Shown here: one piece after another, positions 1 through 42,019 of the stretch
How the letters are laid out: each line of letters starts with the position of its first letter
How positions within the stretch are numbered: the first letter of the stretch is position 1
From: a virus
Strand: one strand, 5' to 3'
UHGV virus genome: UHGV-0388215
DNA: 42,019 bases
The notes under the pieces: model-generated
What the model was told of the DNA's origin: nothing
Seen by the model: the letters and a program-made list of their open reading frames with translations, nothing else
The model's database searches: none
Program-made: the position numbers and the translations under genes

Positions 1-978
1 CTCCAGTTCCTCGCCGTATTTCACGCCTTCGGCAAAGGCGCGGGATTCGGCGGGGTCTTCCGCATCAAGCCCGCAGGCGTCCATAGCTTTCTTGGTTTCT
101 TCGTCCATCGCTTCCTTTTTCTCCGGCTTCTCGTCGCCTGTTGCAGGGGAATAGGCCAGATCGGAGAGGGAGTCCGTCAGTTTTTTGACGTCCTCGGGGT
201 CGAGTTTGGCGGACAGTTCACCGATGAGCTTACGGATTTCCTCCGCCTTGTCCTCGTCTTCGGTGATATCCACGATTTCGCCAGTCACGGGGTCGACCTT
301 GTGCAGGTCGATGATGGCCTGCGCAAGCTCCACTTCCTGCTTTTCGATGTCCGGGTTGTCGTCTTGCGCGCCCCGGAACCATTTCTTAAACTTGCCCATA
401 AGCGTTCCTTTTTTCGTTGAAGTTGGATGAGAATCCGCCACCACCACGTCCGGCCCGGCCCGCCCTTCTTCGACCAGCGCGACGTGGTTGCCTCGGATGT
501 TCCGCATGATGAAATCGTAGGGGGTGCCCTCGTAGCTGCCCGGCGTGAAATCCGGGTCGTAACGGTAGGCGCAGGAGAGTTCCCGGAAAGAACCGTCTTC
601 AATGGCGTCGATGGCGGCCCGATCCCACACGGTCAGCGGCGCATCTACATACGGCGGGTTCCAGACCGCGCCCGTGCCCACCGCGCCCACGCGGGTGAGC
701 TTCTGCGGCTCTTCCGCGCTGTCGATGTGGTGCTCGATGTGCAGCGGCAGCCCGGCCCATGTCTCAAGCGATGCTTGAAGTTCTTCCGGGTCCCGAAGCC
801 CGTAATAGACAGCCTCGGGGTCAAGCCCGGCTTCCTGCCAGCCCGGAATCTCCCGCCCGTAATAGGGGTTCACCGTCGCTTTCGTGATGTGCGACGCCCC
901 GACGTGCAGGAACCCGTTCTCGTCGGTTTCCCGCTGTGAGGGAGCCGCGTCGAAGGTGACGCCTTTACTTTGATACAT
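1..978 (-). CDS. prohead protease/scaffold protein (Mu gpI-like), N-terminal 326 codons; ORF runs off the window start
   Basis: My own minus-strand translation from ATG at 976-978 ([10 protein letters not shown]...HIEHH...) is open to position 1 in the frame whose antisense is track ORF 427..939; position follows portal and gpF as in Mu; internal ATG at 397-399 with AAGGAA 8 nt upstream; C-terminal part carries [12 protein letters not shown]...[12 protein letters not shown] repeat also present in ORF 41285..42019. Confidence 0.5.
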
Positions 979-981
979 AGA

Positions 982-1785
982 CTAGTCTCCAAATTCAGGA
1001 ATAACGGCCCGGTACGTGCATTGGCACCCCGGAAGCTCACCGCAAAGCACTTTGCGCTTCACGTCAGAGTCGTAAAGACCTTCCGTGATGACGAACTTTT
1101 TCCCATTCATGAGCTGGTGGGTATGGCGGCTCGTTTTCTTTCCCGGCACATGTACCCAGATGCCTTCGGTGATGCCGAGTTCCTTGTCCTGCACCCGCTT
1201 AAGGGCCTCGGTCGCCTTATTGGACTGGTCGCGGGCAATGAATTCTGCCCGGCGCCGGGTGATCTCGTACCGCTTGTGCAGTTCGTCGGCGAGGAACTCC
1301 ACGTCCCGGCCCATGCTGGCGGAACGCTGTACTAGCCCCGTTACTTCCGTGAAATAGTGCTGCGGAATGGATTTGATGAGATTGACATTTTCCTCGAAGA
1401 GGGCCCGCGCCACGTCGCTCATGGCCCTGCTTCCCTCCATCCTCACCGTGAAGCCCGCATCTTTGAGGGCCTGCCTCATGCTGGCTTCCGTGCGCCGCCT
1501 CGTACTGCCCACGAACTCCCGTGCAAAACTCTCCGCGCTTTCCCTCCACCGCCTCGTCCAGTACCGGAACAGGCGCTTGAGGCGGTCTTGCAGGTCACTC
1601 GCCGGGGAATCCTGCGCTATGCGGGTTTCCTGCTTCCTGTACTCGGCGCGCAGCCACCAGATGACGGACCGCTGCATCTCGTCGAGGAGGGACACCAGCC
1701 GCTTCCGGTATTTCGCCCGGATACCCGCGTTGGGCTTAATGGAGCGGATGACCTTAGCCATAGACGGCCCCGGCCTTATCCACAT
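982..1785 (-). CDS. head morphogenesis protein (Mu gpF / SPP1 gp7 family)
   Basis: 267 aa; downstream of portal with 32-nt overlap; sequence character of Phage_Mu_F family (from memory, no search run). Confidence 0.7.
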   Translation of the reverse strand: MWIRPGPSMAKVIRSIKPNAGIRAKYRKRLVSLLDEMQRSVIWWLRAEYRKQETRIAQDSPASDLQDRLKRLFRYWTRRWRESAESFAREFVGSTRRRTEASMRQALKDAGFTVRMEGSRAMSDVARALFEENVNLIKSIPQHYFTEVTGLVQRSASMGRDVEFLADELHKRYEITRRRAEFIARDQSNKATEALKRVQDKELGITEGIWVHVPGKKTSRHTHQLMNGKKFVITEGLYDSDVKRKVLCGELPGCQCTYRAVIPEFGD

Positions 1786-40635: not shown

Positions 40636-41274
40636 CTACGCTCCGGCGGCGGCTGCGCCGAGGTTGGTGCGGGCCTGTTCCGCAGTGGTTGCGCCAGTTC
40701 CGCCGTTGGCCACGCCGAGCGCTCCGGTGGCGTTGCTGAAATCTTTCTGCATCAGGTTCGAGGTGTCGCCGCCGGATCCCGACGCTGCGGCCTGTCCCCA
40801 ATTGCTGATGATGATCGGTTCCCCGATTTCGCCGGGCGTCTTGACGACCCACCCCGTATCGAGGTGCGTGGCGTCGGGGGTCCCGGTGCTGATTGAACCG
40901 TCAGCGGTGGAGGCAAGAACGGCCTGCCCCACCGTGGCCTTGGTCGTGGAAACGGCCCAATAGTCGCCCTTTACGGCCACGGTGAGGTTCGAGCCTGCCG
41001 GGACGGTCAAAGTGCCGTCAGAAAGCAGTTCGTAGTTCACGTAGTTGATGACGCGCTCCACGAAGCCGAGCACGGCTGTGGCGGTGCCAGCAACGTTGGT
41101 GGCCTGCGTGTTGTCGATCACGCCGGAATCCACGACGGGGAAGACGAAGCGCCCCACAGGGAGGGCCACCGCCGCCAGAGGGTTGAGCGGGGTGTAGATG
41201 CTCTGGTCGGGCGTCGCTTTATCGCCAGCGACGCCGGGAGCGACGGAGAGATTGACTTGGGACTGCAAAGGCAT
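40636..41274 (-). CDS. head protein (decoration-like?) with Gly/Ala/Thr-rich C-terminus
   Basis: Start at MPLQSQVNL with AGGAGG RBS; 213 aa; between scaffold and capsid genes; C-terminal GVANGGTGATTAEQARTNLG. Confidence 0.4.
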   Translation of the reverse strand: MPLQSQVNLSVAPGVAGDKATPDQSIYTPLNPLAAVALPVGRFVFPVVDSGVIDNTQATNVAGTATAVLGFVERVINYVNYELLSDGTLTVPAGSNLTVAVKGDYWAVSTTKATVGQAVLASTADGSISTGTPDATHLDTGWVVKTPGEIGEPIIISNWGQAAASGSGGDTSNLMQKDFSNATGALGVANGGTGATTAEQARTNLGAAAAGA

Positions 41275-41284
41275 GGTGTGCCTC

Positions 41285-42019
41285 CTATTCTGCAATGGTG
41301 ATATTGGAAAGCCCGGCGAAGCTGCCAGACATGCGCCCGACGGGGGCCGCGTCACGGGCAACGGAAGGTGTCGCCTTCTGCTTGCGGAGGACATCGATCA
41401 TACCGGGCCATGCCTGCCGGGGATACTTGCGGGGATTCTCCCCAAGCTGCTCCAGCGCGTAGCCGTAGACGTCGGACGCGGAGTCGAAGGACAACGGGTC
41501 AAGTTCGCCCACCAGCCCGCGCACGTCGCGCACGGCACGGGTGAGGTTCCGCATATGCTCCTGCGCTTCGGCGACTGCGGATGCCTTGATGCGGGCGGCG
41601 TCCATTGCGGTGAGAGGACGCGGACCACGGCGGCGGAATGCCCTGTCCTGAGCGGCTCCCTTGTCGTCCGGGGCTTCATCTCCGGTCGCGGGGGAATAGG
41701 CGAGATCGGCGAGGGAGTCGGTCAGCTTCTTTTTCTGCTCCGGTGTGAGGTCGGGGACGGAAGCGAGGATGCGCTTAATGGCCGCGTCCTTGTCCTCGTC
41801 CTTGCCGAGTTCGCGGCGTTCGCCCTCGGATTCGTGTTCCCGGTCAAGCTTGCGCCGTTCCTCGGGGTTCCGGATCAGCTCCTCACCGTACTTGACGCCC
41901 TCGGCAAAGGCTTTGCTCTCCTGCGGGTTCTCAGCGTCGAGGCCGCAGGCATCCATAGCCTTTTTCATACCCTCGGACTCATGCTCGCGGTCGAGCTTCC
42001 TGCGTTCGTCCGGATTGCG
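41285..42019 (-). CDS. scaffold portion of protease/scaffold gene, 3' part; ORF enters from beyond window end, in frame with ORF at 1..978 if the sequence is circular
   Basis: ORF open to last base (42019 is a codon boundary); contains tandem repeat units [18 protein letters not shown] and [30 protein letters not shown] homologous to 1..150. Confidence 0.5.

Follow-up and report, generated by a model that had tools for sequence, protein, structure and literature searches.

Virus genome UHGV-0388215 very probably represents one turn of a circular temperate phage assigned to Bilophila wadsworthia

The gene divided by the window ends

The virus genome UHGV-0388215 was analyzed as a single stretch of 42,019 bp, hereafter called the window. 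It carries head, tail, control, recombination, and integration genes of a tailed phage (Table 1), and both of its ends lie inside one minus-strand gene for the head scaffold protein, a member of PF09979 (DUF2213). An initial annotation, made from the letters alone, had proposed that the window is a complete, circularly permuted phage genome. This proposal was supported, and every testable part of the interpretation held in our analysis.

The minus-strand translation of positions 1 to 978 gave 326 complete codons from the ATG, the final codon being at positions 3-1. The minus-strand translation of positions 41270 to 42019 started with a complete codon at 42019-42017 and reached a stop codon, the gene ending at 41285. 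When position 42019 was joined to position 1, a single open reading frame (ORF) of 570 amino acids (aa) was obtained (978 + 735 nt). It had been claimed that one ORF runs from 978 and leaves at base 1, that another enters at 42019, both on complete codons, and that the two form one gene when joined. This claim was confirmed. In addition, the family phrog_2229 aligned with aa 4-355 of the product in one stretch, which spans the join.

The join was then compared with public assemblies. A lookup of the exact portal protein sequence gave ten contigs (L026-L035), drawn from separate samples in ENA, JGI, and Logan. In eight of these ten, the genes were arranged in the order portal, Mu-F, a PF09979 product of 570 aa, cement, and major capsid protein. 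In L029, the 570-aa PF09979 gene was split in two. Since 570 aa is the length found by gene callers in many independent contigs with an identical portal, the join is real. A 6-kb junction query, composed of the last 3 kb and the first 3 kb of the window, aligned without gaps at 100% identity to eight independent ENA/JGI/Logan contigs and at 99.98% to a ninth. The same query was collinear with 23 IMG/VR contigs at 93-98% identity, and the junction 24-mer (12 nt from each window end) occurs within 23 IMG/VR contigs. The 1713-nt gene of L026 (12327-14039) matched the doubled window base for base from 41285 to 978. Furthermore, in a human-faecal contig (MT836569), a 520-aa ORF showed 39% identity over 99% of its length, and the junction motif is uninterrupted there. 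Thus, base 42019 directly precedes base 1 in nature, with nothing missing and nothing extra.

The arbitrary cut point sits within the first of two tandem repeat units of the scaffold gene. The initial annotation had described a repeat of about 47 aa that continues across the junction; the continuity was found as described, and the unit length proved to be 49 aa. Units 1 and 2 share 43 of 49 residues (88%) and, in register, 104 of 147 nt (71%); local alignment of the window ends gives about 74%. Of the codon differences between them, 27 are synonymous and 6 non-synonymous, and the longest in-register stretch of exact identity spans 11 nt. The two ends had also been described as about 75% identical in DNA and as repeat units, not an assembly overlap. 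Their nature as repeat units stood, and the identity is replaced by the values above. No exact direct repeat of at least 8 nt was found between the window ends. With only 71% identity between its copies, the 147-nt repeat escaped Tandem Repeats Finder, and it was characterized at the protein and codon level.

As the cut falls inside a tandem repeat, the join might be an assembly artefact, in which the contig broke or collapsed at this point or the true number of the 49-aa units differs. Indeed, the copy number truly varies among relatives: of the 120 clusters of closest homologues, about 110 show two units, six show a single one (P0098 and P0100 among them), and two (P0109 and P0117) show three GVKYGE...EHES cores. 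Such an artefact is nevertheless very improbable. The units have at most 11 consecutive identical bases in register, far under the k-mers of assemblers, and a de Bruijn graph will therefore keep them apart without collapse or tangles. Moreover, exactly two units at 100% identity were present in eight contigs derived from different samples and assemblers, and two is also the number in the great majority of the close homologues.

It is also conceivable that the window ends are the physical ends of a linear virion genome and that the scaffold gene is restored upon circularization. The chance of this is next to nil. The known termini of tailed phages (cos, pac, and direct terminal repeats) are near the terminase genes or in non-coding DNA, whereas terS and terL are here 4-6 kb off. 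There is no terminal repeat of the kind sought above, and many assemblies read through 42019/1. The relatives of the large terminase subunit (TerL) are also of the headful type. The TerL of the window is 47-50% identical over 95% of its length to those of its nearest deposited relatives, Proteus vB_PmiP_RS51pmB (50%) and Aggregatibacter Aaphi23 (47%) and S1249, which are headful packagers. Because of this similarity to Aaphi23-type phages and the packaging mode of those phages, the DNA in virions is probably packaged by a headful mechanism, with terminal redundancy and circular permutation. The term "circularly permuted" holds for the sequence representation of the window; for the DNA packaged in virions, we infer it. 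RS51pmB and Aaphi23/S1249 are temperate phages with genomes of 42-44 kb, comparable to that of the window. However, the rest of the virion module is unlike theirs, and the relatedness is limited to the packaging enzyme.

Closure of the circle and the integration site

All fetched loci were mapped onto the doubled window. One ENA contig, ERZ28617388 scaffold_1423 (45,486 bp), begins at window position 25354 and descends past the phage attachment site (attP) to 11730 (L107, 100% identity). It next crosses 1/42019 to 33773 (L026, 99.99% identity), and its final part runs from window position 37546 to 25170 (L118, 99.98% identity). Since it traverses 25354, 1/42019, and 25170 in this order, one independent contig goes once round. 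At contig position ~42,018, it reads its own first 185 bp again and then diverges into another baseplate module. The period of the circle given by this contig is 42,017-42,019 bp. A wrap-around overlap of 3.4 kb had been expected in scaffold_1423, and the self-overlap was 185 bp; the circle closes anyway, and strain mixing is evident. The fetched parts of the Logan contig SRR10029178_6420 (window 10089-37546) were 100% identical to the window. If it is collinear throughout, this contig of 41,368 bp would cover the circle minus about 650 bp. No long internal duplication was found in the window.

The integrase gene is located 84 nt from the att core. The initial annotation had recognized the core as the 3′ end of a tRNA and placed it at 20857-20890 (34 nt). 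The assignment to a tRNA 3′ end was right, and the core was found to extend over 48 nt, at 20857-20904. The same core is present in L037 and L038, which diverge from the window after 20904, and in L106, L111, and L104, which diverge before 20856. A complete tRNA-Asn is present in L037, L038, and L071.

Junctions of the attR type were found in L037 (GCA_963921555.1, a 427-kb contig) and L038. In these contigs, an identical integrase gene is followed by the core, the 5′ part of the complete tRNA-Asn, and host genes [class II aminoacyl-tRNA synthetase (lysS), lolCD-like, bamA, amidase, skp, and lpxD]. They come from sister phages, which are ~98% identical to the window in the int-proximal region only (in L038, also in the recombination genes). 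Junctions of the attL type were found in L106 and L111, where a tail-fibre end 99.7% identical to the window leads into the core, and other host genes follow right after ...CCA-G. A host tRNA with a matching 3′ end (attB), the search for which had been suggested, was found as tRNA-Asn(GUU) in Bilophila wadsworthia ATCC 49260 (L071). There the site is empty, and both host flanks are adjacent around an intact tRNA-Asn (787-862): positions 1-814 correspond to the flank of L037 at 100% identity, 815-862 is the core, and the sequence from 863 onward corresponds to the flank of L106 at 99%. Three contigs from other samples (L103, L107, and L112) carry the attP arrangement of the window at 100% identity, and an attP-specific 33-mer matched two IMG/VR contigs. 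Thus, attP, attB, attL, and attR were all seen, which is the full set of the Campbell model. These comparisons show that the phage integrates Campbell-style via its tyrosine integrase into the 3′ 48 nt of the tRNA-Asn(GUU) gene. In this respect, it resembles the tRNA-targeting integrase systems of the lambda/P4/P22 type: int adjoins attP, the core is the 3′ part of a tRNA so that integration rebuilds the tRNA, attL, attR, and attB were all seen, and repeated motifs are present in both arms. It differs from them in that the target is the tRNA-Asn(GUU) of Bilophila, no excisionase was recognized by homology, and the arm sites are candidates.

The core was found only in Desulfovibrionaceae-type genomes, Bilophila among these, and NCBI names close scaffold homologues "uncultured Bilophila sp." By these sequence matches, the host is assigned as Bilophila wadsworthia (Desulfovibrionaceae, human gut).

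Integrated copies exist in the public data: L106 and L111 hold the tail fibre, core, and host genes, and L028, from the same sample as L106, holds the head region. These copies would fit a window that is a prophage excerpt with wrong borders, the ends of which run into host DNA or another element. In a prophage excerpt, att borders with int at one end are expected, whereas int and the core are here in the middle of the window (19775-20904) and both ends lie inside one gene. Past 42019, eight independent contigs read base 1 onward at 100% identity, and no host gene was found in the window by Pfam/PHROG annotation. A prophage excerpt is accordingly about as remote as a linear genome with these ends. 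The earlier statement that the contiguous tail fibre, core, and int represent attP and not a prophage end was borne out, since the lysogen-type contigs are split at the core.

Contigs of the attP form are common in bulk metagenomes, which are not virus-enriched. This would also be expected if the circle were a stable extrachromosomal phage-plasmid. That is very unlikely, on a par with the repeat artefact. No partition or plasmid replication genes were present among the annotated ORFs, and megablast gave no match in PLSDB. In addition, the integrase and attP are intact, and integrated copies are found at tRNA-Asn.

Based on these results, we conclude with high confidence that the window is one complete turn (42,019 bp) of a circular temperate contractile-tailed phage of Bilophila wadsworthia, opened arbitrarily in the scaffold gene. 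Host genes at the ends, a frame break, and a second phage were each looked for, and none of the three was found. The circular assembly would derive from excised, replicating, or concatemeric phage DNA. The phage is an ordinary temperate phage, and the window is a routine case of a circular genome linearized at an arbitrary point.

Several points count against this conclusion. A circular episome, an excised circle, a rolling-circle concatemer, and permuted virion DNA are indistinguishable from sequence alone. Scaffold_1423, the sole contig to complete the whole turn, has a different baseplate module at its end; thus, the population is mosaic, and assemblers can mix strains. Neither cro nor an excisionase gene was recognized by homology in the Pfam and PHROG scans of the window ORFs. 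PHROGs and RefSeq label the scaffold family "head maturation protease", and for the DUF2213 protein, "protease" is a database label. Finally, the AlphaFold2 model of the scaffold protein, built from a 10-sequence alignment, had a mean predicted local distance difference test (pLDDT) score of 39.9 and was unusable.

The TTGGTGCA repeats on both arms of attP are candidate arm-type integrase sites. A 63-aa ORF upstream of int had no family match in Pfam or PHROG. A hairpin of the phage itself (20821-20848) mimics the host terminator downstream of tRNA-Asn.

Other arrangements were observed around the core. In L104 and L116 (ENA ERZ28618653 scaffold_1418), the fibre-side core is followed by genes for a T5orf172 protein, a DEAD-box helicase, and an MmeI-like protein, not by the usual host flank. 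These genes may constitute a second, defence-like island at tRNA-Asn. L105 and L108 were considered as simple lysogen ends of the window phage and were rejected: their fibres are those of the window, but their att arm is another one and stands beside tRNA-Arg. The fibres of L105 (4561-4830) and L108 are 99.3-99.8% identical to those of the window, and the sequences switch at window position 20963 to the other arm, next to which lie host genes for type III secretion and a complete tRNA-Arg(CCT). An alternative integration module thus seems to be carried on the same virion backbone. In L042 and L043, the identical 332-aa integrase and core stand beside quite different tail and structural genes. 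The integrase is indexed in 271 blocks of the collection, versus 38 for the portal. As the integrase and core occur next to different structural genes, the int-att cassette is common to unrelated phage backbones.

The scaffold protein and its repeat units

The N-terminal part of the 570-aa product (aa 16-183) matched PF09979 with an E-value of 3.7e-46 (157.6 bits against a Pfam cut-off of 22). The PDB chain 9b40_G, Pa193 gp24, which was deposited as "scaffolding protein", matched aa 12-174 (E 8e-10). Its gene is flanked by the Mu-F gene on one side and by the cement and capsid genes on the other, and the order in PB1 is identical. In a five-sequence alignment, H83, S135, and H165 were invariant, which would fit a Ser/His protease. 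For the C-terminal 376 aa, no match was obtained in a sequence search of the PDB. Within the unusable AlphaFold2 model, the repeat region was predicted to be helical at pLDDT 55-67.

In Pa193 gp24, residues 286-326 were assigned to a helix-turn-helix that plugs the five-fold vertices of the capsid, and cleavage of the protein was left open (PMC11456595). In a MAFFT alignment, the PB1 segment equivalent to this helix-turn-helix (EMSGE turn) falls on repeat unit 1; the overall identity is 24%, so this is a positional hint only. The PB1 protein, as aligned, has no copy of the 49-aa repeat. The 49-aa units would be helical capsid-binding elements of the scaffold.

The variable number of units, from one to three, is the only mildly unusual feature of the phage. 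The single-unit protein P0098 (521 aa) is a clean hybrid of unit 1 and unit 2. We put forward, as a speculation that is more doubtful than not, that the units are duplicated capsid-binding helical modules like the helix-turn-helix of Pa193 gp24, and that their copy number is a selected, recombination-driven dial on the valency between scaffold and capsid. Under this valency reading, strong purifying selection would preserve the repeat peptide even as the two copies diverged in DNA (27 synonymous versus 6 non-synonymous differences). Separately, and equally tentatively, no temperate phage of Bilophila wadsworthia may have been fully resolved before this one, for which attP, attB, attL, and attR are all defined.

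Other genes, relatives, and significance

The annotation was based on precomputed Pfam matches on identical contigs and on Pfam and PHROG scans of the window. The coordinates of the features are summarized in Table 1.

Table 1. Positions of the genes, repeat units, and attachment-site elements in the window
Feature	Position	Strand	Basis
Scaffold 5′ part, aa 1-326	1..978	-	Translation; PF09979; phrog_2229
Scaffold 3′ part, aa 327-570 + stop	41285..42019	-	Joined ORF; exact gene match in L026
Repeat unit 1 (aa 296-344), first 31 residues	1..93	-	Unit split by window cut
Repeat unit 1, last 18 residues	41966..42019	-	Comparison with unit 2
Repeat unit 2 (aa 345-393)	41819..41965	-	Comparison with unit 1
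Mu F-like head morphogenesis protein	982..1761	-	PF04233
Portal protein, 516 aa	1754..3304	-	PF06381
Endonuclease I family, opposite-strand cargo gene	3441..4187	+	PF04231, E 3.6e-30
Terminase large subunit	4202..5662	-	PF03237/PF17289, phrog_38
Terminase small subunit	5652..6197	-	phrog_1206, E 3e-15
Endolysin, Peptidase_M15_3	7542..7928	-	Pfam/PHROG
Late transcriptional activator	7992..8360	-	phrog_836
RusA Holliday-junction resolvase	8787..9218	-	PF05866
DnaD-like helicase loader / replication initiation, 323 aa	9519..10490	-	phrog_2514, E 2.5e-22
CII-like activator (CP76)	10879..11331	-	phrog_101; PF06892 weak
CI-like repressor	11890..12666	+	phrog_4, phrog_6201
Recombination pair: PDDEXK exonuclease (14524-15297), RecT (15308-16237)	14524..16237	+	Homology
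Tyrosine integrase, 332 aa	19775..20773	+	PF00589
Four TTGGTGC(A) repeats, ~10-nt spacing, P arm	20778..20817	+	Candidate arm-type integrase sites
attP core, 3′ 48 nt of tRNA-Asn(GUU), anticodon loop to CCA	20857..20904	-	Shared in split contigs
Inverted and direct copy of TTGGTGCA motif, P′ arm	20946..20966		Candidate arm-type integrase sites
Neck, contractile tail, baseplate, fibre module	21305..35142	-	Pfam/PHROG
Fibre chaperone	21305-21706	-	Pfam/PHROG
Tail fibre	21730-22821	-	Pfam/PHROG
Tape measure	28401-30209	-	Pfam/PHROG
Tube	30840-31289	-	E217 gp32 family
Sheath	31301-32806	-	E217 gp31 family
E217 gp27 and gp28 (collar), neck terminator	within 21305..35142	-	E217/Pa193-based Pfam families (gp27, gp28)
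Chaperone, Dit-like protein, E217 gp41, Apex, sheath initiator, wedge	within 21305..35142	-	Pfam/PHROG
Cargo island: glycine-zipper protein, HSDR_N/phrog_4225 endonuclease, 413-aa Bro-N protein	36180..39154	+	Pfam/PHROG
Major capsid protein	39612..40625	-	PF09950
Cement / decoration protein, E217 gp24 / Pam3 gp6 type	40636..41274	-	PF22758, PF23982

The initial annotation had counted each phage module (terS, terL, portal, capsid, tail, int, cI/cro, replication, and lysis) exactly once. The single copies were found as described, except that cro was not among the genes recognized by homology. A holin was likewise not recognized in the scans of the window ORFs, and three small ORFs downstream of the endolysin gene (6660-7542) had no family match. 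ARAGORN and Rfam detected no RNA gene in the window; the att core is merely a tRNA fragment.

Some of the genes showed particular features. A lone gene on the opposite strand, that of the Endonuclease I family, separates terL from the portal gene, and it is kept in all identical contigs. Public annotations of identical contigs do not include the DnaD-like ORF, which shares 122 nt with the next called gene (9215-9640); for one of these two, the start site is probably incorrect. The cargo island lies on the opposite strand between the capsid and neck genes, and its GC content (~49-53%) is lower than elsewhere. At the site of this island, L029 carries unrelated genes. The Bro-N gene is called as 305 or 413 aa in public annotations.

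A gene for a 260-aa baseplate protein is located at about 25128-25910. Independent contigs with otherwise 99.9-100% identity break off within this gene, at window positions 25170, 25240, and 25300: L118 and L119 diverge there, and L120 ends. L118 (12377-15661) and L119 go on into different baseplate and fibre modules; that of L118 contains an NlpC/P60-like protein and a 633-aa protein. From these alignments, the 260-aa baseplate gene looks like a hot spot of module exchange.

The phage is common in public gut metagenome assemblies and in IMG/VR. When both halves of the window were compared by megablast with 50,697 deposited phages, no match was obtained, and the best capsid match among named deposited phage records had at most 41% identity. 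Neither the literature search nor the deposited phage collection yielded a described Bilophila phage or prophage. Among deposited sequences, the head genes were closest to those of MT836569.1 and MT839840.1, which are unverified, unannotated human-faecal sequences. Besides the scaffold similarity described above, their capsid is 55% identical, and they also possess two units of the FAEGVKYGE...EHESEG type. However, they are fragments of 4-10 kb, and their second unit is much more diverged.

The Pseudomonas Pbunavirus phages PB1, E217, and Pa193 share the order portal, Mu-F, DUF2213 protein (PB1 gp22, Pa193 gp24), cement, and major capsid with the window. Pfam families based on E217 and Pa193 also match the window (collar gp27 and gp28; sheath gp31; tube gp32; gp41; cement). 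The PB1/E217/Pa193 phages have genomes of about 66 kb and are virulent. In contrast, the window phage is 42 kb and temperate, and it has CI/CII-like regulators, RecT, RusA, and an integrase with attP. The scaffold proteins are 24% identical, and the capsid proteins less than 40%. The window phage combines a contractile-tail virion module of the E217/Pa193 type with lambdoid-type modules for control, recombination, and integration.

These results mean that the record is usable as a complete, closed reference genome, which can be rotated, for instance so that terS comes first. In place of two truncated genes, a single gene of 570 aa is to be annotated. Of modest interest are the variable scaffold repeat and the mosaicism, which is seen in the shared integrase, the exchange of fibre and att modules, and the cargo islands. 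Bilophila wadsworthia is a sulfide-producing gut pathobiont to which this phage is now assigned by sequence. The exact integration site aids prophage detection, induction assays, and genetic tools for Bilophila wadsworthia.

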